Source: Isurus oxyrinchus (lineage: Eukaryota). Taken from it: a stretch of DNA of 64,000 bases. Numbering within the stretch: the stretch's first letter is position 1; every line of letters starts with the position of its first letter. The notes under the pieces were generated by a model. The model saw nothing but the letters and a program-made list of their open reading frames with translations. It searched no databases and had not been told where the DNA came from. The translations under genes were made by a program, and so were the position numbers. Shown piece after piece: positions 25,821-63,576 of this stretch. The DNA lies in contig JANJGN010000052.1 in assembly GCA_026770705.1 (NCBI GenBank), positions 3,782,001-3,846,000 of the forward strand, in the 5' to 3' direction.

Positions 25821-26999
25821 ATGTGTGCATGTGGATTGTCGCATCTTTATTATTAACGTTATTTAAAAATAGTGATCACACAAGCCTGGCTTCTAAGGAG
25901 ATGAAACTGCAAACAATTTACAGTAAAGTGAAATGTACAGGAATAATCTATTTATTTTGAGTTGATGATATATAATTATACATGAGGCATGTTGCTAATT
26001 TCAAACATCATCTGAAATATGGCAGGTCTGACAGAGCAGCATTCCCTCAGTGTCCACCCTCTGACAGTGCAGCACTCCCTCAGCATTGACGCTTTGAGAG
26101 TGCAGCACTCCTTCAGTATTGACCCTCTGGAAGTGCAGCACTCCCTCAGTGCTAACACTCCAACAGTGCAGCACTCCCTCAGTACTGACCCTCTGACAGT
26201 GCAGCACTCCCTAAGTACTGACCCTCTGACAGTTCAGCACTGCCTCAGTACTGACCCTTTGATAGAGCAGGGTTTCCCTCAGTACTGACCCTCTGACAGT
26301 GCAGCACTCCCTCAATATTGACCCTCCAACAGTGCAGCACTCCCTCAGCACTCCCTCACTGGGGAGAGTCCATCTGGGTTTTGAGCTGAAACCTTGAGAT
26401 GGTTTGAAAACCCCAACCTGCTGTCTTGGAGAGAGAGAAAGAGAGAGTGAGTGCGTGTGTGAGAAAGAGAGACAATGTGTGTGTGAGACAGTGACAGTGC
26501 GTATGTGTGCGAGAGAGAAGGATAGAGAGAAAGAGAAAATGTGTGAGAGAGCAAAAGAGAGGTAGAGTGTGTACGCATGAGAGAGTGAGGTAGCTGAATT
26601 GTGTGAGAGAGAGAGTGTGTGTGAGAGAAAGGGAATGTCTGTGTTAGGGAGAGAGCTTATGTGTGAGAGAGAAAGAAAGAGAGAGAATCTGTGGGTGTTA
26701 GATAGTGTGTGTGTGAAAGAGAGAGTGTGTATGTGAGAGAGCGTGTGCGTGAGAGCGTGTGTGTGTGTGTGTTTGAGAGAGAGGGTGTATGTGTTTGAGA
26801 GAAGGAGTGTGCGAGAGAGGGTGTGTGTATTTGAGAGGGAGTGTGTGTGTTTAAAAGAATGAACAAGAGAAAATGTGTGTACGTGTGTGTGTGTGTCTGC
26901 GTGTGCATTCTGACTGAGCCGAGTTTACAGTTTCACACGTTGCTAGGGACCACTTTTCCGCCTCTCTGTCAGACTGCGTGTATCTGACAGCAGGTCAGG

Positions 27000-27240
27000 C
27001 AGAAATAGTCCAGAATGCGCTGTGGTTTTGTAGCATTGAAACAACGACATGAACTAAATGAGTGCTGCACCAAATAAAGACATGGAGTGACCACACCAAA
27101 AAACCACGTGACTTCCCCAGTTTCACATCTCCCTCAAACACAGAAAAACTGGGTTAACACTGACCCTCCTCCCAGAGCCAGTTCACCTCGTGTCCGATGC
27201 AGTCAGGAGAGGAAGATCATCTCTCCTCCGATCCTGGTAA
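27000..27240 (+). promoter_or_regulatory. Candidate promoter and non-coding first exon of gene B
   Basis: TGTGGTTT, GACCACA and AACCACGTGACTTCCCCAGTTTCAC cluster, with donor CTG|GTAAAC after 27236. The leader exon at 30010 has an acceptor, so an upstream exon is expected. Confidence 0.4.
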
Positions 27241-28679
27241 ACTGAACATTTCCAGAATGAGATCAGCTCCCTGAAGTGTCTCCAGTTAGACATTCATCTG
27301 ACAGGATTGACTCTACAACCCTGGGGACTCATTCTCCTGTAAGTAAAACACTTGCTGCTCCTGTCAAATCTCTTCTGTACAGCATGGTCTCTGGATGTCC
27401 CAGAACACTTTACAGTTGAGTACACCCTTTTTTCGAAGTGTGGTTACTGTTGTAATGTAGGAAACGCAGCAGCCAATTAGCGCACAGCAAGCTCCCACAA
27501 ACAGCAATGTGATCATCTGTTTTTGGTGATGTTGGTTGAGGGATAAATATTGGTCCCAGGACACCGGGGAGATCTCCCCCCTGCTCTTCCTCCAAATAGT
27601 GGTTGTGGGATCTTTCACACCCGCCCGAGAGGGCAGACGGGGGACTCGGTTTAGTGTCTAATATTGGACTAATCTCCAGGCGAGGTTGGCTGGATGGATT
27701 ATTGACAAGGTCCATTCACCCTGTAAAGAGTTTCTCTGGTTTGAAATACCCAATCAAACATCGAGTTCTGTGTCTAAACCTTGTGTTGAAAAGACACCTT
27801 TCCAGCTCTTCACCTGCCATTAGCTTGTTGAGTCTTCACACGCTCCGTCTGTCCGTGACCAACCCCTCTTAGCTCATCCTTTCCTTGTCGTACATCGAGC
27901 TGTTCATCCTGACGGGTTCCATCCTTCCCAGTAACACTCCATCTCCGACATCAAACTAACTCCCAACACGTTGATGAATTGTATGGATTCCAGCGTCAGT
28001 TGGTTCTGTCTGAGGCTGTTTCTCTGATCGGGGACCGAGCTGTTCTGAATGGACATTGTGTTCAGTACTGATCCTCTGACAGTGCAGCACTACCTCAGTA
28101 CTTACCCTCTGACAGTGCAGCACGCCCTCAGTACTGATCCTCTGACAGTGCAGCACTCCCTCACCACTCCCTCACTGGGGAGAATCTACCTAGGTTTTGA
28201 GCTGAAATCATGAGCAGGTCTTAAAACATTCTGTATCAGAGAGAGAGAGAGTGTCTGAGAGACAGAGAGAGACAGAGAGACTGTGTGAGAGAGAAAAAGA
28301 GATAGAGAGAGTGTGTGCATGTGTGAGGGAGAGTGTTTGTATATGAGGGAGAGAGTGTGCTTGTGAGAGTGCATGAGAGAGAGTGTGTGGGAGAGAGAGT
28401 TTGTTTGTGACAGAGAGTGTGTGTGTGTGCGAGGGAGAGAAAGAGGGAGACAGCAGAAGATCGAGATGAAGAGAAATGTTAAATGTTTGAGAGAGAGAGA
28501 ATGTGTGTGTCTGAGAGAGAGAGTGTGTGTGTGTGAGAGACAGTGTGTGCTTGACAGAAAGAGAGATTGTGTTAGTTTTAGGGAAAGTGTGTGAGTGTGT
28601 GAGAGAGTGTTTGTGTCTGAGAGAGAGAGAGAATGTATTTGAGGGAGGGAGACAGAGAGAATGTGTGTGTGAGAGAGAG

Positions 28680-29417
28680 AGAGAGCAGAAGAGTGCGATA
28701 GAGAGAGATTGTGAGTGTTAGAGAGAGAATGTGTGTGTGAGAGAGATAGAGCAGATGAGTGTGATAGAGAGAGATTGTGTTTGTTAGAGAGAGAAGGTGT
28801 GTGTGAGAGAGATAGAGCAGAAGAGTGTGATAGAGAGAGATTGTGAGTGTTAGAGAGAGAATGTGTGTGTGAGAGAGAAAGAGAGAGCAGAAGAGTGTGA
28901 TAGAGAGAGATTGTGAGTGTTAGAGAGAGAATGTGTGTGTGTGAGAGAGAGAGATAGAGCAGAAGAGTGCGATAGAGAGAGATTGTGAGTGTTAGAGAGA
29001 GAATGTGTGTGTGTGAAAGAGAGAGAGATACAGCAGAAAAGTGCGAGAGAGATTGTGAGTGTTAGAGAGAGCATGTGTGTGTGAGAGAGAGAGATAGAGC
29101 AGAAGAGTGTGATGGAGAGAGATTGTGAGTGTTAGAGAGAAGGTGTGTGTGTGAGAGAGAGATAGAGCAGAAGAGTGCATTTGAGAGAGATTGAGTGTTA
29201 GAGAGAGAATGTGTGTGTGTGAGAGAGAGAGATAGAGCAGAAGAGTGTGATAGAGAGAGATTGTGAGTGTTAGAGAGAAAATGTGTGTGTGAGAGAGAGA
29301 GATAGAGCAGAAGAGTGTGATAGAGAGAGATTGTGAGTGTTAGAGAGAAAATGTGTGTGAGAGAGAGATAGAGCAGAAGAGTGTGATAGAGAGAGATTGT
29401 GAGTGTTAGAGAGAGAA

Positions 29418-29449
<32 letters not shown>

Positions 29450-29757
29450 CAGAAGAGTGTGATAGAGAGAGAATGTGAGTGTCTGAGAGAGAATGTGTGT
29501 GAGTGAACGAGAGATAGAGCAGAAGAGTGTGATAGAGAGAGATTGTGAGTGTTAGAGAGAGAATGTGTGTGTGAGAGAGAGAGATAGAGCAGAAGAGTGT
29601 GATAGAGAGAGATTGTGAGTGTTAGAGAGAGAATGTGTGTGTGAGAGAGAGAGATAGAGCAGAAGAGTGTGATAGAGAGAGATTGTGAGTGTTAGAGAGA
29701 GAATGTGTGTGTGAGAGAGAGAGAGAGAGCAGAAGAGTGTGATAGATAGAGATTGTG
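28680..29757 (-). repeat. ~70-bp compound minisatellite, arm B copy
   Basis: Reverse complement of the 7025-9740 unit. Confidence 0.95.
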
Positions 29758-30023
29758 AGGACTAAACTCACTGAGAGAAAAAGCTGGACACCCAGCACAG
29801 GGAGTGAGGGAACAATGAATTTTTGCCGTGTTTGGTGAATCGGTTTGCGATGTCCCTTCTCAATCTCTCCTTCCTTGTCTTGACATTAGTTTATTCCCTG
29901 GGGCTGTTTAACTCACTGAAAGGTGCCATTTAAACACAAGTTGTTGTTTGAGGAAGAAACACTGGGGACAATTTCTGAAAAAGTCTCTGTCTTTATCATT
30001 TCCATTTAGATGAGGAACTGAAG

Positions 30024-30069
30024 ATGGGAGAGGTCGGTCTGATATTGATCTTCATCAGCTTGCTGCAAG
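30024..30069 (+). pseudogene. Signal-peptide exon of Siglec gene B (MGEVGLILIFISLLQ|G)
   Basis: Acceptor at 30009, AAGATGG Kozak-like start, 46 nt, phase-1 donor G|GTACAA. Confidence 0.85.
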
Positions 30070-30889
30070 GTACAAATTCATTACTGATCGGAACTCAGGG
30101 AATTGGATTCTTTCCTGGAGTGAGGAAGTGAACATTTAATTTTAGAGAACAGGGTTAGTGATCACACAGAGAGTGAGTGAATAGCGAGTCAGAGAATATA
30201 GCAAAAGAAAAAGTCTCATACGGACTCGAAACACCAACTCTGTTTCTCTCTCCACAGATGCTGTCAGACCTGCTGTGTTTTTCCAGCATTTTCTGTTTGT
30301 GCATCAGAGAGCTTGTTTCAATAGGAATGACAGTGCATTTATACAGCACCTTTAATGCAGTAAAACAACCTTATTGCTTCACAGGATTCCCCCACAAGGG
30401 GTAACATCCCCTCAGCATCCACCCTGTCAAACCCCCCACCACCTCAGAATCTTATATGTTTCAATAAGATCACCTCTCATTCTTCTAAACTCCAATGGAT
30501 ACAGGGCCCAACCTGCTCAACATTTCCTCATAAGACAAACCCCCTTCATCCCAGGAATCAGCCCAGTGATCCTCCTCTGAACTGCCTCCAATGCAGAGTC
30601 TATCCCTCCCTAAGTAAGGAGACCAGAACTGTACACACTGCTCCTGATACAATCTCACCAACGCCCTGTACAGTTGTAGCAAGACTTCCCTCCTTTTATA
30701 CTCCATCCCTTTGCAATAAAGGCCAACATTCCACTTGCCTTCCTCATTCCGTGCTGTTCCTGAATGCTGACTTTCTGTGATTCATGTACATGGACACCCA
30801 GATCCCTCTGTACCGCATTCTGTAGACTCTCTCCATTGAAGTAATATTCTGCTTTTTGATGTTCAGTCCCCTCCCTTGTTGCCTTTCAG

Positions 30890-31191
30890 GAGTGACGTCA
30901 GAGGGATGGTCTATGAAGGCGCTGCCTCGGAGGGCCATCAGCAGCTCTTGTGTGGTTATTCCGTGTAGCTTTGACTTTCCTTCCCACTCTTACACAGCAC
31001 TGCACGGAGCTTGGTATAAATATTGGTATAGATGGAAATATACCATCACATACACCAAAGATCCCAACTATGGGATGGCCACATTCGTGGGACGTGCTAA
31101 AATAATCGGCAACTTGGAAGGGAAGAATTGTTCGGTGAGGATTGACAGTCTCAGAGCTGAAGACAGTGACGTGTATTGCACCCAATTCTAA
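30890..31191 (+). pseudogene. Truncated Siglec/MAG-like V-set exon of gene B
   Basis: GVTSEGWSMK...SSSCVVIPCSFDFP...LHGAWYKYWYRWKY...FVGRAKIIGNLEGKNCSVRIDSLRAEDSDVY|CTQF*. Siglec CxxIPC and E-strand Cys are present, but the F-strand FR and G strand are missing. Confidence 0.85.
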
Positions 31192-32290
31192 ATCTTTTCA
31201 CCAATTAGTCGACCTCATGAAGATGTGTTTTCAGCTGAAGCCGTGGGTAATAATGAAAAGGTTTAAGTTTAACTCCAGAGTAAGGGCCCAGGGAGAGTCC
31301 ATCGCAACCTCTACAGTGAAGTGGAAGCAGGTGACTGAGCACTGGGACCTCGGAGACACACTCAATGACATGTTGCGGGGCCGATTGGTTTGTGTCGTTC
31401 ACCCCAACGCCATTCAGAGCCGTTTACTCGCAGAAGCCGACATCGATTTGAAGCGCACCATGGAAATAGCGCTAGGCATGGAAAGTGCTGGGAGAGACTG
31501 GCGGGATTTACAGGATGTACAACATGGCGCCAGTCCTCAGCTGGGACAGGAAACAACCACCAGGCGTGAGGCTCAAACTGGAGAGAGAGAGAGAGAGACA
31601 GCCGCCAAGCGAGAGACAGTCTCTGCCGCTCCAGAAACTAAAAGGCTTCGTGGGAGTATTTCAGCAGCAACTCCGAAGTTGGCCTGTTCTCGATGTGGGG
31701 GGCATTGAGCACGTACTGGACACCTGCAGGTCCAAGGGGGCAGAAGGCCATCACTGCCACAAGAAAGGGGTGGGTAATAAAGCAATGCAGGGTGAAATCG
31801 AGACAGTCTATCAGGCAGTGCACCAACATGATGGAAGTGAATAATATCACAGAGCCTGAAGCTGCTGATACCGATGTCTATTCCCTGTCCAATGTCACAG
31901 CGGTAAAAACTGAACCTATAACCATCACAACCCAAGTGAATGGGCAGCCACTAGTAATGGGGCAGATACGGGAGCCTCAGACACAGTGGTGGAAGAGCCC
32001 ACATTTAAACAGCTAAATGAAGGAACCCAGACGCTGAATTTAGAGCCAACAATGGATCAGCTGAAGACACACACTGGAGAATCCATACAGGGAAAGGACC
32101 TCATCCCAGTACCTGTGTCCTACAGGCAGCAGACAGCCCAGCTTCCAGTGATCATAGCGACAGGTGAGGGCCCTAGTCTTCTGGGCCGAGACTGGTTCCA
32201 GAAAACCAAGCTCAGCTGCTCTGAAATGTTTCACTGGAGGAGTTGCTGAGTTGCTGGGGGAATATGAGAGTGTATCTCGGAATGAGTTTG
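31177..32290 (+). mobile_element. Degenerate Gypsy gag-protease fragment (arm B)
   Basis: Gag core, CSRCGG..H....C knuckle, GATACGGGAGCC (DTGA) near 31966, and GEGPSLLGRDW. No LTR at either end. Confidence 0.85.
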
Positions 32291-32544
32291 AAGAATTGAA
32301 GCATCCTCACAGGCTGCAAGTGTCCCTCAGGTCAGAGTTGGTTCCACTGGAAAATCCTGAAGAGAAAGAAAGCGAATTCTGTGCCGCTCTGAGCAAACTG
32401 AAGAAACAGTTGGCAGGGAAGACCCAACCATGTCCAATGTTCCAGGAGGAAGGCAAGAGATACAAGGAAGAGACTGAAGAGCTGAAGATTCAGCTGAATG
32501 AAACCAAAGAGGCAGTTACAGTATCACAACAAGTTTACAGTGCA

Positions 32545-32950
32545 GAAGGAGGCCATTCAGCCCCTTGAGCCTGTTACACAGGAACAGGAGGAGGCCATTC
32601 AGCCCCCTCAAGCCTGTTACACAGGAACAGGAGGAGGCCATTCAGTCCCCTCGAGACTGTTACACAGGAACAGGAGGAGGCCATTCAGCCCCTTGAGCCT
32701 GTTACACAGGAACAGGAGGAGGCCATTCAGCCCCCTCGAGACTGTTACACAGGAACAGGAGGAGGCCATTCAGCCCCCTCAAGACTGTTACACAGAAACA
32801 GGAGGAGGCCATTCTGCCACTTATGTCCGTTACACAGGAACAAGAGGAGGCCATTCTGCCACTTATGTCCGTTATACAGGAACAGGAGGAGGCCATTCAG
32901 CCACTGATGCCCGTTACACAGGAACAGGAGGAGGCCATTCAGCCCCTTGT
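32545..32950 (+). repeat. ~39-42-bp minisatellite, arm B copy
   Basis: Mirror of 3895-4260 with a slightly different unit count. Confidence 0.9.
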
Positions 32951-33339
32951 AGGGTGTGGTGGTGTGTGTCAGCTTCACCTGCGACTTCTGAGCCGTCTGA
33001 ATCACTCCCACTCCCTGGGTTCTAGACCTTGGACTTATTCGGGGCTTGTCACAAAGTGCAGCAGACAACTGGTTTTGGTGCAAGACAAAAACTGAGTTTA
33101 CTGAAGTCACAAATGAACTTATAACATTAGGATGACACTGAGATTATACAGACTTACAAAGTACACTGAGTTAAGAATAGGGAACACACGGCATAACGAG
33201 GGAGAATCACGCTACTAATGCCCTTACCCTTGTCCCACCCCCAAACCCTAACTAAATTGCACTAGGAGAGGTCAGGGGTCACGCTCACCAACCCAGGGTT
33301 CCTTGACAGTTGGAAATTTTGAGAACCCTTCAAGAGATG

Positions 33340-33990
33340 GGGAGGGTTACAGGGGCTGGAGGAGGTTACAGTGATAGGGAGGGTTGTAGGGGCTGGAGGA
33401 GGTTACAGAGATAGGGAGGGTTGTAGGGGCTGGAGGAGGTTACAGAGATAAGGAGTGTTGTAGGGGCTGGAGGAGGTTACAGAGATAAGGAGGGTTGTAG
33501 GTGCTGGAAGCTGTTCCAGAGATAGGGAGGGTTGTAGGGGCTGGAGGAGGTTACAGGTATAGGGAGGGTTGTAGGGGCTGGAGGATGACACAGAGATAGG
33601 GCGAGTTGCAGGGGGTGGAGCAGGTTGTAGAGATAGGGAGGGTTGTAGGGACTGGAAGAGATTACAGAAATAGGGAGGGTTGTGGTGGTTGGAGGATGTT
33701 ACAGAGATGGGCAGGATTGTCAAGGCTGGTGGAGGCTTGGGAGATTATTAGGGTTACAGTGGCTAGAGGAGGTGACATGTATAGGGGTGTTGTCGGGCTG
33801 GAGGTTGTTACAGGGATAGGGAGGATTGTATGGGCTTGTGGAGGAGGTTACAGATATAGGGAGGGTTGTGGGAGGTGGAGGAGGTTACAGAGATGGGGAG
33901 GATTGTAGGGGCTGGTGGAGGTTACAGAGATAGGGAGGGTTGTAGGGGCTGGAGGAAAGGGACAGAGAGAGGAGGTTACAGATATAGGGA
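33340..33990 (+). repeat. Degenerate 37-bp G-rich minisatellite
   Basis: Same unit as 1273-2645. Mostly missing in arm A, where only 3400-3510 remains. Confidence 0.9.
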
Positions 33991-34134
33991 GGGAGACAGT
34001 CAGAGAGAGAGCGACAGGGAGAGAGAGAGCGATAGAGAGATTGAGAGACAGACAGAGACTGCGAGAGGGAGAAGAGAGAAGGAGAGTGAGAGAGAGAGAG
34101 AGAACAAGTGTGAAAGATGGTGGAAGGGAAGAGT

Positions 34135-34490
34135 GGGGAGGTGTTGGCCTGATGGTATTTTCACTGGACCAGTAATCCAGAGACCCAGTGTAATGCTCCT
34201 GGGACCCTGGTTAGAATCTCACCACAGCAGTTGGTGGAATTTCAATTCAATAAAAACCTGGAATTAAAAGTCCGATGATGACCAGGAAACCATTGCTGAT
34301 TCTTGTATTTGGGTCACAAATGCCCTTTAGGGAGGGAAATCTGCTGTCCTTACCTGGTCTGGCCTACATGTGACTCCAGACCCACAGCAATGTGGTTCAC
34401 TTTTAAAAAGTGGCCTCTGAACAAGGGCAATTAGGGTTGGGCAATAAATGCTGGCCTGGGCAGTGATGTCCACATCACATGAAAGAATGA
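34135..34490 (+). mobile_element. tRNA-derived SINE sharing its 3' tail with the LINE family at 16950 and 41350
   Basis: Degenerate A/B-box-like head, CCTTACCTGGTCTGGCCTACATGTGACTCCAGACC core, and GGGCAATTAGGG.TGGGCAATAAATGCTGGCC tail. Related copies at 49870-50240 and 51085-51345. Confidence 0.7.
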
Positions 34491-35089
34491 AATAAAAGGA
34501 CAGAGAGGGACAGACAGAGTCGAGAGACACCCAGAATGAAAAAAACACAGTAAACACTGGAAAATAAACATTCTGGTCTGATCTGGTCTTGTATACCTTC
34601 AAATGGAACACCAGTAAAACAGGGAAATAAGAGTACTGGGCCAAACTGTTAGAGAGGGTCACATTTAGAGAGAGAGAGAGAGAGAGAAAGAGGGAGACAC
34701 TGAAAGAGATAAGGACAAGGAAAGAAAGAGTGAGAGAGAGAGACAGACAGAGACACACAAAGAAGTAGAAAGAAAGTGATAGAGATGAAGCAGGAGAGAA
34801 TGAGGAGAAAGATAGATAGATAGAGAGAGAGGATGGTAGAGAAAGAGAACGAGAGGAAAAGAGACAAAGGCAGAATGTGATGGAACACTGAATCCTTGTC
34901 TATGCGTTTTGAAATCCAGCCCAGAACTATCATTGGAAGATTCAGCGAGTGTCCAGTACAGGGGACCCAGCCCAACCTTCTCATCCTGACCTTCCCAGTG
35001 GGGCTGAAGAGGGCAGAGAGGAAACCTTCCTCTGTTATTCTGTTGTCAAATAAACACAACAATTCTGGAACTCTGCCCTTTCTATCTCA

Positions 35090-35675
35090 CGGATTAGAAT
35101 ATAAGGGGGCAGAGGTCATGCTTCAGTCTACATAAAGCCCTGGCTAGACCACACCTGGAGTCACTGTGAGACATTCTGGGCCCCACACCTTAGGAAGGAT
35201 ATATTGACCTCGGAGGGAGAGCAGTGTCAGTTTACCAGAATGAGACCGGGACTCCAAGGGTTAAATCACAAGGAGAGATTAAACACAAACTCGGCTTGTC
35301 CTCCCTGGAAGTTAGAATGTTAAGCAGGGGATTTGATGAAAGTTCGCATGATATTAAGGGGAACAGATCGGGGGAGATAAAGAGAAACCATTTCCCCTGG
35401 TTGGGGGGAGTCTGGGACTCGGGGTCAGAGCCTAAAAAGGAATTAAATGAGGAAGTACAAAGGGTGGGAGAAATTTGGAACTCTCTTCCCCAAACAGGAA
35501 CTGATGCACGATCAAGTTGTTCATTTTAAACCTGTGAGACTGATAGATTTTTGTTATCCAAAGGTATTAAAGGAGATGGGACAAAGGCATATGGGGCTAG
35601 TTTGCAGATCAGCCATGAGCTCATTGAATGGTGGAGCAGGCTCGAGGGGCCAAATGGCCTCCTCCTACCCTCATG
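35090..35675 (+). mobile_element. CR1-type LINE 3' end (arm B only)
   Basis: GLEYKGAEVMLQ...LARPHLE..., ...WNSLP, and tail ATTGAATGGTGGAGCAGGCTCGAGGGGCCAAATGGCCTCCTCCT. Confidence 0.8.
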
Positions 35676-36649
35676 TAATAGAAACTTACCTGTCAGAAGC
35701 CAGTTTATGTTGATGTGAGTCTGAGTCGATGACTGAACCCAGTTGGTAACTTGTTCCATACAAAGCAAGAACGTTCATGCCCTTCAATGTTCCTGGATAA
35801 ACCATTAACAAAGCTGGTGACAGACAGTCTCCACATGGTAAACACTGACCGATCAACACATGACATGGCTGTTAACCCCTAAACCTCAGCGTAAATCAGT
35901 TCCCCCTCGAGGCCCCTTGTCCGAAATAAAAGCAACGCACACAATTTGTAAAATAGTAAGTGTCTGGCAGGAAGGAGGAGCAATGAGAGGAGTAAGGGGT
36001 TAGGGGGCATGCGGTTCACCTGATTTGCCGACATTAGAACCAGCCCCTATGTTTTTGCTATGTTGTGTTGCATCAATATGAACACATATTTGCACAAGGT
36101 GAAGGGCGTTGCGGAGGGACTGATAGTTCTCGGCGCCAGACAGTCTATGTCCCAGTGACCTTACTGCTGGTCCCAGGCCAGTGGGACAGGGAACATCGAC
36201 ACTGCAATATCCAGAAATGGGTGTGATACCACACAGCTACCCGCCCGCGGCTGTCCCCTTCAAGTGTTTCAGGTATAAGAGCAGGAAGCTCCTCTAGTTA
36301 CAAACCAAAGCATCAAAGCAGAGCCAGAAGATCAGAAGAGACAGGCAGAGATGGGAAGCTCCCAGATGAAATGGCGACTTGTCTTGTCCACTCTGACTTT
36401 GCTGCTCTCCCTGCAGCTGAGTCACTTCTTCTCCTTGTCGAGGTTAAGCTAAGAGATGTCCCTCTGGGTGAGGTGTTTCTTGCACATGACTCTACGTCTA
36501 CCACCCAGATAGACTGGTCTCTTCCGCAGTTTGATATTATTATGTTCGTGCCTTTAATATTGTCGCCCTCTATGAATTTAACATCATTTCCTTCTGTCAT
36601 TTCCCCTGAAATTCTCATTCTTGTTTTCAATCCCTCCTCAGCCACTCCC

Positions 36650-37500
36650 TATCTCTGTAACCTCCTCCAGCCCGTACAACCCTCCCTATCTCTGTAACCT
36701 CCTCCTGCCCCTACACCCCTCCCTATCTCTGTAACCTCCTCCAGCCCCTACACCCCTCCCTATCTCTGTAACCTCCTCCAGCCCCTACAACCCTCCCTAT
36801 CTCTGTAACCTCCTCCAGCCCCTACAACCCTCCCTATCTCTGTAACATCCTCCAGCCCCTACAGCCCTCCCTATCTCTGTAACCTCCTCCAGCCCCTACA
36901 CCCCTCCCTATCTCTGTAACCTCCTCCAGCCCCTACAACCCTCCCTATCTCTGTAACCTCTTCCAGCCCCTACAACCCTCCCTATCTCTGTAACCTCCTC
37001 CAGCCCCTACAACCCTCCCTATCTCTGTAACATCCTCCAGCCCCTACAACCCTCCCTATCTCTGAAACATCCTCCAGCCCCTACAACAATCTCTATCTCT
37101 GTAACTTCCTCCAGTCCCTACAACCCTCCCTATCTCCGTAGACCTCCTCCAGCCCCGACAACACTCCCTATCTCTGTAACCTCCTCCAGCCCCACAACCC
37201 TCCCTATCTCTGTAACCTGCTCCAGACCCTACAACCCTCCCTATCTCTGTAACCGCCTACAGTCCCTACAACACTCCCTATCTCTGTAATCTCCTCCAGC
37301 CCTTACAACCCTCCCTATCTCTGTAACCTCCTACAGCCTCTACAGCCCTCCCTATCTCTGTAACCTCCTCCAGCCCTTACAACCCTCCCTATCTCTGTAA
37401 CCTCCTACAGCCTCTACAACCCTCCCTATCTCTGTAACGTCCTACAGCCTCTACAACCCTCCCTATCTCTGTAACCTCCTCCAGCCCCCACAACCCTACC
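36650..37500 (-). repeat. 37-bp minisatellite, arm B copy
   Basis: Reverse complement of 1273-2645, about 0.85 kb versus 1.37 kb. Confidence 0.95.
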
Positions 37501-37504
37501 TAAA

Positions 37505-38120
37505 TCACTGGTCTGAGTCTCACTCCAGGGAATTCAGTCCCATAATGTAGGTCAACGCTCCGTGCTGAGGGAGTGCTGCACTCTCAGAGGGTCAGTAGTG
37601 TGGAAGTGTTGCGCTGTTGGAGGGACAGTACTGAGGGAGTGCTATACTGTCGGAGGGTCAGTACTGAGGGAGTACTGCTGTGTTGAAGGGTTAGTACTGA
37701 AATAGAGCTGCACTGATGGAGGGACAATACTGAGGGAGCGCAGCACTATCGAAGGGTTAATACTAAGGGAGTGCTGCAGTGTCAAAGGGTTAGTACTGAG
37801 GGAGCTCAACAATGTTGAATGAGACATTAAACTGAGTCCCCCGTCTGCCCTCTCGGGCGGGTGTGAAAGATCCCACAGCCACTATTTGGAGGAAGAGCAG
37901 GGGGAGTTCTCCCCGGTGTCCTGGGACCAATATTTATCCCTCACCCAACATCACTAAAAAGCAGATGATCTAGGCCATGATCACATTGCTATTTGTGGGA
38001 TCTTGCTGTGCACAAATCAGCTGCCACATTTCCTACAGTGTGAGTGCACTTCAAAAACATCCTTCAGTGGCTGTGAAATGCTTTGGGATGTGGTGAAAGG
38101 CGTTAGAGAAATGCAAGTCT
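37505..38120 (+). mobile_element. DeuSINE/SacSINE1-like SINE, arm B copy
   Basis: Mirror of 655-1260. Confidence 0.7.
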
Positions 38121-38219
38121 GTCCTCCTCCCCCTCTCTCTCCTGTACCTCTCTCTCTCTCTCTCCCTCTCCCTCAATCCTCCTCTCACTTTCTCCCTGAT
38201 AAATTCTTTCTTTTTGCAG

Positions 38220-38276
38220 GTTGACACTGCTTTAGGTTCTTCGACGATTGAGAAATCTGTGGATTCCCCGGACACG
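38220..38276 (+). other. Candidate 57-nt phase 0-0 cytoplasmic exon (VDTALGSSTIEKSVDSPDT)
   Basis: Strong acceptor and ACG|GTAGGT donor. Phase-compatible with the terminal exon at 40515. Confidence 0.4.
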
Positions 38277-39819
38277 GTAGGTGGAAATTCATTCCTTATT
38301 TTAAGGTTTCTCCCTGCTCGTTTCTTCCACAGAAAGTTTTCTGATTTCAAGCTGATTTCAGTGGCAGTCTGTCTCGGTTATACTCAGGAGGCATGTTTGA
38401 AATCGAGCCCCCCCCAACTTTTTTTTGCAAAGCTGGGAAGAGGCAATTCCAAGGAAGTGAACATATCCCCACAGGAATTTTAAATGTAACCCACGCCGGG
38501 AATAGTGAGAGGGAGACTGATCCAGCCTGGGAGTGGGTTAAAGAGAGGCTGGGAGTCGAGAGTCGGAGAGAGGGATGGAATGGGGGAGGGAGGGATTGGA
38601 AGAGAGAGACAGAGAGTGGGACGGGGAGGGGTGAAAGGGAAAGAACATAGGTGGGAGAGAGTGACAGAGGGAGAAATTAAAGAAGTGATGCAGAGTGAGG
38701 GAAAGTGAAAAGGGAAGAGAGATTGTCCAAGAGAGAGAAATTAACAGAAAAGGGAGAGTTACAGAGTGAGCGAAAGGTACAAAAATAGTGTGAGAGAGAG
38801 GGAGAGATACAGAGTGGGAGAAGGAGACAGGGGAGAGAGAGGGAGAGAGACAGGAAAAGGGAGAGAGGAGAGAAAGATTGGGAGAGAGGGCAATTGAGAG
38901 GAAGAGTAGGAGAGAGAGAGACAGGGAGAGGAGGAGTGGATGAGAGGAAGAGAGAGAGAGATATGGAGCAGGAGAACACCTCCTCCGGTCCCGATGTTCC
39001 TCCAAAATCTCTGACATTACTGCATCTCCCGGGTCCCCCTGATTCCCATCGCTCCACCATTGGTGGCCGTGCCTTCAACTGCCTGGGGCCCTGAGCTCCG
39101 GAATACCCTCCCTTTACCTCTCTGCCTCTGTCTCTTTCTCTCTCTCTCTCCTTTAAGACGCTCCTTAAAAACTGACATCTTTGACCAAGCTTTTGGTCAC
39201 CTAACCCTAATATCTCCATATGTGACTCAGTGTTAGACTTCTCTCTGATTTACGCTCCGGTAATGTGGGCGGGGACATTTTGCAATATCAGAGGCGCTGT
39301 GTAAATGCAAGTTGTGAGTGTTATGTGGAAGGGAGACCCCAGGCGGCAGTCAGTGCCAGAGACTGGAGTCATTGTGTGCAGACCATATCTAATCTCTCCG
39401 AATGCACAATCGGTTTGACTGTCAGCCAAAGCACTTTTGATATTTGATCCTTCTAACTGTTTATAACCAGGCCTACATCAAACACCGAGAGGCTGGTTAA
39501 TCAACAGACACCTTAGAGGATCGAGTGAAAGACAAAGAGGACTTGCATTTCTCTAGCGCCTTCCAACACATCAGGACGTCCCAAAGTGTTTCGCAGACAA
39601 TCAAGTGGTTTTTTTCTTTCATGTGAGGTCACTGATGTACTGTGGGAAAAGAATCAGCCATTGGCGCACAGTAAGATCCCACAGACAGCAGCATGATAAT
39701 GACCAGCGCGCTCCCAGTACTTGCACTGCAAGTGTCAGTTCAGGATGTGTGCTCGATTCTCTGCAACTCTCAGCTCTGAGTTAAAAGGACCACCAGGCAT
39801 AATTGAGAAATTACCGAGC

Positions 39820-40390: not shown

Positions 40391-40514
40391 TGACATGAGA
40401 GAGAGGGTTAAACCCACTGAGACAAGACTGACACTAATGAGGCTGCTCAATAATTTAACCCTATCAGTGCCAGTAAATAATGTGAGGATGTCTTCTGTTT
40501 CCATTTCTCTGTAG

Positions 40515-40763
40515 GGTAAACAGAACGTGCTGATTACTGAGCCCCGGAACACAACCAGAGACACAACTAGTGAGGGGGAGACCCCAGCTCCCCGGGGTCT
40601 CTCTGAAGGTGCATTGGGAGGCGATGCTGGACATTGGCACATCGACAATCCCAACGGCCTTCTCTACGCCAATCCCCAAGTATTGAGGATGTCCAGTGAT
40701 GATGGGTCTGTCCACAGGGAAGAGGAGACGGAATACGCACAGATCAGGTTCGAGCATAACTGA
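40515..40763 (+). CDS. Orphan Siglec terminal exon 1 (LLYANP, TEYAQI)
   Basis: 249 nt, open, intact acceptor, paralogous to 19201-19449. No TM exon found upstream on this strand, so its status is uncertain. Confidence 0.75.
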   Translation, partial: GKQNVLITEPRNTTRDTTSEGETPAPRGLSEGALGGDAGHWHIDNPNGLLYANPQVLRMSSDDGSVHREEETEYAQIRFEHN

Positions 40764-40960
40764 ATGAGAAATGGGGAGTGAGAGTGAGGAGGTGTGGGGG
40801 TGGGGGTAGTGATTGAGATTCCTGGGAACAGGAAACAACCCACCGGGGGACAGGGGGAGAGAGGGAGGAAGGGATGCGATTGGGCTGCGGTTGGTGTGGT
40901 TTGGAATGAAATGCTTCTCCAGAGAGGACTGGATGCTGAGCCACTGGGGATAGAGATTCA

Positions 40961-41001
<41 letters not shown>

Positions 41002-41344
41002 TCTTTGTCTTTCTTTCTGTGTCTGTCACTCATTCTCTATCTCCAGCTCCTCCTTTAAGATGCCCGTTAATAACTGACTTTGTTGACTCAGCTGTTGGTC
41101 TCCTGTCCCTTATATCTCCTCATGTGCCTCAGAGTCAGGTGAAGATGTGACTAACAATTCCCGGATGAGCCTTGGGACATTTTGCTACATTAAAGGTGCT
41201 ATATAAATGCAAGTAGTTGCAGTAAGTCTGATCTGCTTCGATTAACAATGAAACCACAAAGGCTCCTTCGACAGGGCGTGTGTGCAGGAGGATCCCAATA
41301 AATACATTGAGCTGTGAGATTTTTAATTCTTACATCGAATGTGG

Positions 41345-41790
41345 CTGTCACTGGTGATGCCAGCATTAATGCCCATCCCTAATTGCCCTTGAGAAGGTGG
41401 TGGTGAGCTGCCTTCTTGACCCGCTGCAGTCCATGTGGTGTAGGTACACCCACAGTGCTGTTAGAGAGGGAGTTCCAGGATTTTGACCCAGTGACAGTGA
41501 AGGAACGATGATATATTTCCAAGTCAGGATGGTGAGTGGCTTGGAGGGGAACTTCCAGGTGGTGGTGTTCCCATGTGTCTGCTGCCCTTGTCCTTCTAGA
41601 TGGTAGAGGTCGTGGGTTTGGAAGGTGCTGTTGAAGGAGCCTTGCTGAGTTGCTGCAGTGCATCTTGTAGATGGTACACACACTGCTTCCACTGTGTGTT
41701 CGTTGTGGAGGGAGTGAATGTTTAATGTGGTGGATGGGGTGTAGATCAATCGGGCTGCTTTGTCCTGGATGGTGTCAAGCTTCTTGATTC
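41345..41790 (-). mobile_element. CR1/L2-superfamily LINE 3' fragment
   Basis: Near-colinear with 16960-17395 (CTIYKMHCSNS.RLL.QHLPNP...KSWNSL...AHHHLLKGN). Confidence 0.85.
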
Positions 41791-41920
41791 TGTGCTTTGT
41801 ATAGAACTGATTTAAAGAGACAGTCCCAGTCGTTGGTCTAAGATTACAGTGGGCTCTGTGTCTGTGCTACACTGACTCTCTGCTATATGATAACCACAGT
41901 GTGATATTTTGTTATTACAG

Positions 41921-42002
41921 GAGAAAGACAGCGATGGAGGAGAGAGTTTCAGGGACCAGTGACATTGTATTGACCCCCAGTCCACTCTCTGTGAAGCACC
42001 AG
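41921..42002 (+). CDS. Orphan juxtamembrane cytoplasmic exon (RKTAMEERVSGTSDIVLTPSPLSVKHQ)
   Basis: Near-identical to 20796-20877, with intact AG/GT. Confidence 0.75.
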
Positions 42003-42137
42003 GTACAGGAGCTGTTTACACTCACTCCAAAGCTTCTATCTCAGTGTGTAGACAACACATGTCCCAGATTCCCAGCCAGGTTACCCACTGATTTGTACCT
42101 GTGGAGTCAGCAATGGTTCAGTATCATGCTGTCTCTC

Positions 42138-42894
42138 TGTTATGTCACAGCAACTGGTAAAGGCTGTTGTTTAAAATCCCAGAGGGAAACTTTAAACAAC
42201 TGTCATAACCTATATTTCCCAGTGGAATGTTTGAGATGCAGCTCTAAATTCAGGAATAAGACCATCAGTTCTTGAGATGGGTTTATATCAAACTACATGA
42301 GACATTTATTAATTTTCACAAGTTAATCATATGCACATGGCTACAAGCTAGTACTATCATAACTTTTTAACAAATTCCCAAACTAACGTCCTCTAAGACA
42401 ACCCATAGACTTTAAGCAGATTCCAAGCGAAGCATTTTCACCTCACAAATTCCAAATGAGGTTCCTTTCACTTTGGTTCCTTTGCAGACAGGTGTAGGCT
42501 TACAGCTGCTTTGATGTTACAAGCCTCTGCTCTGCACACACAAAACTGCTCAAGTTATACCCAGCTCTTCTCTTTGAATGTAAATTCTCATTGTATCATC
42601 AGGACCTTTGATCTCCATCTCTTCTAACTATAAATCCCGTTTCATAGTATCAATTTTATTAGTAATATAAACATTGATTGGTTTAAGAATTCACTCCCAG
42701 GCTTTGAATCCTCCTTTTAAAAATGCAATATGCCTCTTTACCTCTTTGTTTACATCTCAAAACTACTATACATAAAAGTACCCAGACCGGCTGGCTTTAA
42801 TCCAATTAAAACACACACACACACACCCACAGACTAAACCTCTGTTTAAAAAGACAATTTCCAATTACAATACATACATTAATAGATTCATAAC
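42138..42894 (-). mobile_element. Solo LTR (TGTTATG...CATAAC family)
   Basis: Short terminal inverted repeats. Absent from the paralogous intron at about 20660. Related to 46515-47342. Confidence 0.7.
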
Positions 42895-43019
42895 GCTCAG
42901 TCTCTGACCCTTCATCTCTCTCTCTCTCTCTCATCCTCTCTCTGATTACAAGATTCATGTTATTGAGCCTCACACCAGGCACCTGAGTGCAGAATCCAAG
43001 CCGACACTCGCCAGAGCCA

Positions 43020-43310
43020 TTACCGAGGGAGTGCGAGACTGACAGAGGGTCAGTACTGAGGGAGTGCTGCACTGTCAGAGGGTCAGTACTGAGGGAGTGT
43101 TGCACTGTCAGAGGGTCAGTACTGAGGAAGACCTGTACTGTCGGAGGGTCAGTACTGAGGGAGCGCTGCACTGCTGGAGGGTCAGTACTGAGGGAGCGCT
43201 GCACTGTCGGAGGGTCAGTACTGAGGGAGTGCTGCACTGTTGGATGGTCAGCATTGAGGAAGTGCTGCACTATCGAAGGGTCAGTACTGAGGGAGCACTG
43301 CACTGCCATA
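43020..43310 (+). repeat. 33-bp SINE-derived minisatellite
   Basis: Tandem units upstream of the tail exon at 43451. Confidence 0.9.
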
Positions 43311-43450
43311 GGTGTTTTCTTTCATAAGACATGTGAGAGAGGGTTAAACCCACTGACCCACGACTGACACTAACGAGGCTGCAGAATATTTTAACCCTAT
43401 CAGTGCCAGTAAATGATGTGAGGATGCCTTCTGTTTCCATTTCTCTGTAG

Positions 43451-43699
43451 GGTAAACAGAACGTGCTGATTACTGAGCCCCGGAACACAACCAGAGACAC
43501 AACTAGCGAGGGGGAGACCCCAGCTCCCCAGGGTGTCTCTGAATGTGCAGTGGGAGGCAATGCTGGACATGGGAACCCCGACAATCCTGACGAGTTTCTC
43601 TACGCCAATCCCCAAGTCTTCAGGGTGCCCAGTGGTGATGGGTCTGTCCACAGGGAAGAGCAGACGGAATACGCACAGATCAGATTCAAGAGAAACTGA
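43451..43699 (+). CDS. Orphan Siglec terminal exon 2 (FLYANP, TEYAQI)
   Basis: 249 nt, open, intact acceptor, in frame with 41921-42002. Confidence 0.75.
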   Translation, partial: GKQNVLITEPRNTTRDTTSEGETPAPQGVSECAVGGNAGHGNPDNPDEFLYANPQVFRVPSGDGSVHREEQTEYAQIRFKRN

Positions 43700-48431: not shown

Positions 48432-48471
48432 ATGATCGGGAAATCTTACTTCCCCCTGTCACTTCTCCAAG
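48432..48471 (+). CDS. Signal-peptide exon of Siglec gene C (MIGKSYFPLSLLQ|V)
   Basis: Exon starts at 48390 after CTCTTTCAG, ATG at 48432, 40 nt, phase-1 donor CAAG|GTAATA. Same SLLQ ending as the gene B leader. Confidence 0.75.
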
Positions 48472-63294: not shown

Positions 63295-63576
63295 ATGCAC
63301 CACGGAACCTATCAATTACTTCTCTTGATATGATTAACGCTTCATCGATCAATATAATTGAGGGGAATTCTGCAGTGATAATCTGCTCTGTCGAGAGCTT
63401 CCCAGCTTCTAACCTGACGTGGCGACATCTTAATGTCCCAATGAACAGAACAAGTTCCAACAATGAGCTGTGGTTGGTGATTCCTCACGTTACATCCAGG
63501 GACACTGGAGACTATCAGTGTGTGGCAGAGAATGAACATGGAGCAGTGGAGGGGTTCATAACCATCACTGTGGAAC
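63295..63576 (+). CDS. C2-set Ig repeat exon R10 (array continues beyond the window)
   Basis: 282 nt, open, followed by the usual repeat intron up to the window end. Confidence 0.92.

Follow-up and report, generated by a model that had tools for sequence, protein, structure and literature searches.

The tail exons described here probably belong to a large shark Siglec cluster in which a splice donor inside the exon lets a block of cytoplasmic linker exon and tail exon be stacked. On this reading, which we consider the probable one, paralogues anchored by a transmembrane (TM) exon are predicted to be ITIM-only, YANP-plus-ITIM or ITIM-less and likely differ in inhibitory strength, and the two YANP tail exons that begin at positions 40515 and 43451 of the window (the whole 64,000-nucleotide stretch of DNA analysed) are likely left over from a broken gene.

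Tail exons of the window and the genes around them

The window contains three open exons of 249 nt, each with an AG acceptor, at 19449-19201 on the minus strand and at 40515-40763 and 43451-43699 on the plus strand. Their proximal motifs are LLYANI, LLYANP and FLYANP, respectively, and the distal motif TEYAQI is present in all three. These exons and motifs had been reported by the sequence-only reading, and their coordinates and acceptors were confirmed. Pairwise, the exons differ at 0-3 positions in the first 90 bases and at 23-37 positions in the other 159. The features relevant to the analysis are as follows.

19201..19449, minus strand, terminal exon of the minus-strand gene with an ITIM (LLYANI) and an ITSM-type motif (TEYAQI)
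20796..20877, minus strand, cytoplasmic linker exon of the minus-strand gene
21756..21852, minus strand, uncharged TM exon of the minus-strand gene
22671..25071, minus strand, three C2-type Ig exons that are nearly identical, with a stop codon in the middle one
30889..31176, plus strand, truncated V-set exon of a second ectodomain type, within an inverted duplicated block
40515..40763, plus strand, internal-type ('FEHN') YANP tail exon; splicing from the in-exon donor gives 40515-40747 (233 nt, phase 2), otherwise 82 codons lead to the stop
40745..40753, plus strand, internal 5' splice site, with GT at 40748-40749 and G at +5
41921..42002, plus strand, cytoplasmic linker exon of 82 nt, entered in phase 2 and left in phase 0, AG and GT intact
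43451..43699, plus strand, terminal-type ('FKRN') YANP tail exon, which has no internal GT
48432..63575, plus strand, next Siglec gene: leader 48432-48471, V-set exon 51574-51938 with the F-strand Arg, C2 exon 52311-52607 and ten open C2 exons at 53320-63575

The V exon at 51574-51938 matches PF07686 (V-set) and PF24518 (Ig_CD22) above the cut-off, and its best matches among solved structures are all Siglecs (sialoadhesin, MAG, Siglec-5, Siglec-8 and CD33). Its F-strand Arg is aligned with that of sialoadhesin, and intact genes of the cluster carry both C2-set domains and a single type I TM segment. By these sequence features, the cluster consists of shark Siglec genes with putative sialic-acid binding. 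The nearest named proteins are those of white shark and basking shark, which points to a lamniform shark. The gene at 48432 ends just beyond the window with a TM exon, a linker exon and an LFYANI tail (locus L161). The minus-strand gene comprises three C2 exons, an uncharged TM exon, an 82-nt linker exon and an ITIM tail; it looks headless because neither a V nor a leader exon was found upstream of it on that strand in the window.

At first look, 406 tail-exon candidates and 330 TM-exon candidates were found in the genome, and in exact 20-base counts YANP reached 191, one YANI variant 77, the TM exon 215 and the distal motif 364; some of the contigs counted may be alternate haplotypes. Since the family comprises 406 first-look candidates, the exons of the window are paralogous family members and not chance open frames. 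No Pfam family matches the tail exons.

The motifs were compared in 115 tails. The ITIM pattern (I/V/L/S)xYxx(L/V/I) is present in 44 of the 47 YANI-class tails, the other three having His at -2, and in none of the 68 YANP/YANT-class tails. The distal motif had been called invariant, which holds within the window but not across the 115 tails, where five variants occur (TEYAQI 97, TEYTQI 13, MEYAQI 2, TKYAQI 2 and TELAQI 1), 112 tails conforming to the ITSM pattern TxYxx(V/I). The proximal Tyr is kept in 114/115, the Asn in 115/115 and the distal Tyr in 114/115. YxN, named earlier as the Grb2 motif, does not mark out the altered tails: the Asn is shared by YANI and YANP alike, and a Grb2 site therefore cannot separate the two classes.

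The in-exon donor and stacking of the tail block

A GT with G at +5 was found at the internal donor position in 36 of 36 modules that are followed by another module and in one of 79 last exons at the first count. The locus of this single exception continues with a linker exon and a YANI exon at the start of a contig, so that the counts become 37/37 and 0/79. YANI exons have the GT without the +5 G, and in terminal YANP/YANT exons, 43451 among them, the GT is missing.

Four runs, presumed to be RNA, were aligned to 40400-40960, and contigs from three of them show use of the donor. Contigs leave the exon at 40748 and continue into linker-exon sequence in X1 and X2 (one sample) and in X8 (a second study), and the X8 junction contig bears letters of the YANP class, although paralogues are indistinguishable at the junction itself. 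A processed copy as the source of this junction was ruled out, the joined sequence having no match in the assembly. Among computed models of white and basking shark, 6 of 16 run from the distal motif straight into linker sequence. A separate read alignment, dominated by repeats, contains the TM-to-linker and linker-to-tail joints, which do not discriminate the tail classes, and none of the run contigs spans TM, linker and YANP sequence in one piece. Contig coverage is absent behind 40763, an observation that was not counted as evidence. The donor at 40748 is used in splicing, and the 40515-type exon is an internal module that is often stacked ahead of an ITIM exon instead of replacing it. The term 'terminal exon', previously applied to all three exons of the window, is accordingly correct for 43451 (terminal type) and 19201 (last exon) but not for the 40515 type, whose internal donor is used in spliced contigs.

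The window's contig alone contains 80 loci (two of them in the window and 78 elsewhere, two regions on other contigs being left out of the count). In the list below, c stands for a linker exon and I, P and T for YANI, YANP and YANT exons; L091 appears in its reassigned architecture.

TM with an ITIM-type end: TM-c-I, 32; TM-c-P-c-I, 14
TM-linked without an ITIM (20 loci): TM-c-P, 10; TM-c-T, 1; TM-c-P-c-P, 5; TM-c-P-c-T, 1; TM-c-P-c-P-c-T, 3
Remainder: TM-less P-c-P, 11; TM-less I, 2; TM only, 1

Thus, a YANI-class exon comes last in 46 of the 66 TM-linked genes (with His at -2 in 3 of these) and is missing from 20, the call of a 'last' exon resting partly on exact-pattern lists, with many loci read only about 600 bases past it. 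An I exon never precedes another module across the 80 loci. Ectodomains in the cluster range from 2 to 13 Ig domains. When 16 of the ITIM-less loci were read 20 kb upstream, an open V exon with the Arg was found in 15; a leader lay within the span read in only 6, and one V exon contained a stop in 2. YANP exons are joined to TM exons in many paralogues, contrary to the possibility that they are never attached to one in any paralogue.

The TM-less pair at 40515 and 43451

The exons at 40515 and 43451 were flagged earlier as receptor tails, and in this respect the window does not bear the proposal out. Hydrophobicity and homology scans of its plus strand revealed neither a TM exon nor a first cytoplasmic (linker) exon upstream of 40515, and the pair has no ectodomain and TM exons of its own. 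The 40515 class forms one clade (support 100/98), and upstream TM and linker exons are missing from all 11 copies on the window's contig and all 20 on other contigs (31/31), within upstream spans of about 6 and 9 kb, one of them stopped at 2.2 kb by the end of its contig. The pair, without a TM exon, is likely what remains of the 3' part of a broken gene, and the two flagged exons are probably not part of a receptor. An inverted duplication (window 26927-38769, matching 1-11471) sits where the 5' part of the pair's gene would be. The pair was also considered as the end of a gene of the second ectodomain type, represented by the V exon at 30889; this was not established, the C2 exons of that type being absent from the window.

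Some transcript evidence counts against the leftover reading. A 163-nt contig of X2 and a 61-nt contig of X1, from runs presumed to be RNA, show zero differences to the TM-less 40515 class, which therefore seems to be transcribed, as a dead remnant would not predict. Such exact-match contigs would also suit a different arrangement, in which the pair serves a remote gene as an alternative 3' end: a long Siglec lying upstream would skip its own ITIM exon and splice its linker to a 40515-type exon, giving an ITIM/ITIM-less switch within one gene. The exon phases fit this arrangement, the three plus-strand exons of the window spliced via 40748 give a frame open for 187 codons with tyrosines at 51, 74, 156 and 179, and a same-strand TM exon lies 19-25 kb upstream in 8 of 21 copies on two contigs. 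Among the listed TM exons on the same strand, however, the one nearest to the window's copy lies 127 kb upstream; the neighbour at 19 kb is inverted, and stops occur in 2 of the 22 exons of the 11 pairs on this contig. Moreover, the 43451 exon begins 4981 bases before the next leader, near the tail-to-leader spacing of intact genes, as is expected of the stump of the previous gene. We consider a distant alternative end improbable.

A broader scheme that includes such ends appears doubtful as a whole, if possible. In this scheme, a Siglec system of several hundred genes would set its output by exon arithmetic: the block would be stacked one to three times, a dual-use exon would either end the protein or read on to an ITIM, and detached YANP pairs would serve as long-range alternative ends. 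Single genes would then switch between inhibitory and ITIM-less forms, forming a third class beside ITIM and arginine-TM receptors.

Selection on the tails and origin of YANP

Open frames maintained despite many substitutions had been taken to suggest selection on these exons; for the YANP copies of the window, the data do not sustain this. The dN/dS values among the three window exons are 1.24, 0.86 and 1.64, none of them significant, and pN/pS within groups is 0.8-2.2 (0.8-1.8 in TM-linked groups), again without significance. As dN/dS is close to 1 throughout, these comparisons do not show constraint on amino acids beyond the motifs, even in TM-linked tails. Stops are found in 2 of 24 TM-less exons (both among the pairs on the window's contig) and in 0 of 91 TM-linked exons (p=0.04), and TM-linked exons have 0 indels among 195 substitutions, compared with 10 among 181 in the flanks (p=0.0008); both p-values are rough because the paralogous copies are not independent. 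The anchored tails are under selection for an intact frame. In the TM-less groups, the indel comparison rests on too few changes, and under neutrality 0.4-0.5 stops are expected per group, with 1 observed in each; open frames are therefore no argument for selection there. The differences between the classes predate the detachment of the pair and are therefore uninformative on selection in its two copies.

In a midpoint-rooted tree of the 3' 159 bases of all 115 rows, YANI is separated from YANP/YANT by a single branch (support 100/100). The first 90 bases and the upstream intron are near-identical between classes (0.89-0.95), and the downstream part has an identity of about 0.5 between the YANI and YANP classes; 5' identity so far above 3' identity suggests that gene conversion homogenises the first 90 nt. 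Homologues in catshark and epaulette shark have an ITIM at the proximal site in 6 of 8 cases, no tyrosine in 2 and Pro in none, and YANP is found in white shark and basking shark models. The split, the outgroup ITIMs and the presence of YANP in both other lamniforms indicate that loss of the ITIM is derived and predates those species. The central observation of the sequence-only reading, loss of the ITIM with retention of the distal motif, is therefore real: it is supported by the YANI/YANP split, the white and basking shark models and the outgroup sharks.

Could YANP be a functionless, decayed ITIM that recent segmental duplication has spread? The dN/dS values near 1 fit such decay, as do the many identical copies (15 of the best 40 matches to 40515 have the maximal score) and the broken genes common in the cluster. 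On the other hand, YANP persists in the white and basking shark models, the Tyr (114/115) and Asn (115/115) are kept across synonymous codon change, TM-linked tails are free of stops and indels, and the donor, which is used, matches exon position in every case, all of which makes simple decay quite unlikely.

Under the preferred reading, that of a stackable linker-tail block, YANP would have arisen once from an ancestral ITIM in lamniform sharks. The block would then have been duplicated in tandem, the upstream copy keeping or gaining the +5 G donor and terminal YANP copies being without the GT, and full-length mRNAs would join the TM, YANP and ITIM modules as the gene models predict.

Signalling model and known receptor systems

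Pro at +3 from the phosphotyrosine is favoured by Abl, Crk and Nck. Such a Pro would putatively remove the main SHP-1/SHP-2 site, as the SH2 domains of SHP-1/2 are described as preferring a hydrophobic residue at +3 and that of Grb2 an Asn at +2 (PMC9783222). In the report on human CD33, the ITIM and not the ITIM-like motif carries most signalling (PMC8242067), and for Siglec-6 it is described that both motifs must be phosphorylated for SHP-2 recruitment (PMC9659267). From this literature, ITIM-less members would be expected to act as tuners with weak or no inhibition, and stacked members to inhibit while offering additional docking sites; activation in the cluster is predicted to run via arginine-TM members.

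An arginine-bearing TM exon was confirmed at two loci, 3' of V-V-C2 exons and followed by a short tail and a stop. The genome contains 229 candidates for this exon, and the 40 that were scored are identical to the query. Charged-TM members with related ectodomains thus exist in the cluster, and for the cluster the suggestion of tail rewiring rather than a charged TM residue is wrong. The YANP genes themselves have an uncharged TM and long tails, not the charged TM and short tail of an activating paired receptor, and Lys or Arg occurs within the membrane stretch in 0 of 67 TM exons of the tail-bearing class. Given the arginine-TM members, tail variation adds to charged-TM pairing and does not replace it.

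These findings bear on another proposal, that YANP tails substitute for charged-TM pairing by making activating or switch receptors, with SAP/EAT-2, Grb2 or Crk/Nck/Abl as putative partners. It would draw support from the 20 of 66 TM-linked genes without an ITIM, from TxYxxI kept in 112 of 115 tails and from the uncharged membrane stretch of all 67 TM exons of that class; a catfish ITIM/ITSM receptor is also reported to stimulate phagocytosis without an ITAM (PMC4810170). We give it little credence, as the cluster already has an arginine-TM short-tail exon with its 229 candidates, YxN is common to both tail classes, 14 genes put YANP ahead of an ITIM-type exon, and human Siglec-10, with a comparable distal motif, is described as not binding SAP (PMC5539825).

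The shark genes resemble mammalian CD33-related Siglecs (CD33 and Siglec-5, -7, -8 and -9) in having a V-set domain with the Arg, C2 domains, an uncharged TM, a proximal ITIM and a distal TxYxx(I/V), as these are described in PMC13358205 and PMC5539825. Both are clustered with many broken copies. The shark system differs in having hundreds of copies instead of about ten, ectodomains of 2 to 13 Ig domains and a tandemly stackable cytoplasmic block with an in-exon donor. In mouse CD33, too, the ITIM is absent and the ITIM-like motif retained, but its TM residue is charged (PMC8242067), whereas in the shark YANP members the TM is uncharged and the proximal Tyr is preserved, followed by Pro at +3. 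Human Siglec-10, with a Grb2-type motif proximally, an ITIM centrally and an ITSM-like motif distally (PMC5539825), is similar to the predicted TM-YANP-ITIM product; the shark tail, however, comes from duplication of one exon pair and has four tyrosines, two of them ITSM-type. In the paired Siglec-5/14 and -11/16, an inhibitory and a charged-TM member of one cluster have similar ectodomains (PMC13358205). The shark cluster shares this arrangement, with putatively opposite signalling, but its charged residue is Arg and it adds a third, uncharged ITIM-less class. Catfish IpLITR 1.1b likewise has a proximal non-ITIM tyrosine region with YxN ahead of a distal ITIM/ITSM, and mixed outputs (PMC4810170), although its ectodomain family is unrelated and the resemblance is one of design only.

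No report of the shark cluster or of the tail module was found in the literature on shark Siglecs and tail-exon duplication, as represented by titles and the beginnings of abstracts, mostly from non-subscription journals. The whale shark genome paper mentions Siglecs once, and the word 'shark' is absent from a 2025 review of sialoglycan-binding proteins. How large the expansion is may also be reflected in the gene-family tables of papers on shark genomes. Loss of the ITIM (as in mouse CD33), tails with several tyrosines and paired Siglecs are known ingredients; what is new is that, on this scale, an exon pair with a putative dual-use member can be stacked.

Diversity of Siglec signalling is known from small mammalian families, in which activation proceeds via charged-TM partners. 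In this cluster, a cartilaginous fish combines three tail designs with charged-TM members across hundreds of genes, through a simple generating exon mechanism. Genes with an ITIM, with extra blocks ahead of it or with none are predicted to tune the strength of the brake on immune cells. They also form a natural series of receptors that share a nearly identical TM and linker and carry from one to three tyrosine modules, in which the roles of the proximal and distal motifs are testable.

Copy number and ectodomain length

Hundreds of Siglec-like gene copies are present in the Isurus oxyrinchus genome (G000), on contigs C52, C71, C121, C150, C189, and C323 and on others. Genome-wide, 406 tail, 330 uncharged-TM (tail-bearing class), and 229 arginine-TM (charged, short-tail class) candidate exons were identified, with all contigs counted together, some of which may be alternate haplotypes. 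The very different lengths of the ectodomains arise from tandem arrays of C2 exons, two of which are found in the window, with exons that are 85–98% identical and spaced at ~1.1 kb:

53320-63575, + strand, tandem C2 exons
22671-25071, - strand, tandem C2 exons

Among the loci read, long runs of this C2 exon are mostly followed by single ITIM tails, and short ectodomains by YANP tails. The leader of the plus-strand gene (window 48432-48471, +) carries Pro in its hydrophobic core, at which the paralogues carry Leu.

The second ectodomain type

Two truncated V exons of the second ectodomain type are located in the window:

30889-31176, + strand, truncated V exon
5900-5628, - strand, truncated V exon

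The sequence behind the truncated exon, which we take to be retroelement-like, gave no match in Pfam. Basking shark models P0007 and P0012 match the truncated V exon, and the F-strand Arg is apparently absent from both. The C2 exon of this type has ~25 close copies. At locus L223 (G000:C52:405000-414999), a second-type gene leads on to C2 exons of the first type and then to a TM exon that is divergent, at 69% identity.

TM-less pairs and membrane exons

In a subset of the TM-less pairs of YANP tail exons (L119, L153, L158, L163, L166, L179–L184, L189, and L190), V exons lie ~6 kb away on the opposite strand. Those at L119 are part of an arginine-TM gene, and a promoter region shared with the opposite-strand gene could therefore account for transcription of such a pair. 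A solitary YANP tail exon lacking an AG acceptor is located outside the cluster, on a large contig (L169, G000:C2:177206000-177215999). Among the uncharged-class TM exons of the C52 loci, 5 of 67 encode Glu within the membrane stretch.
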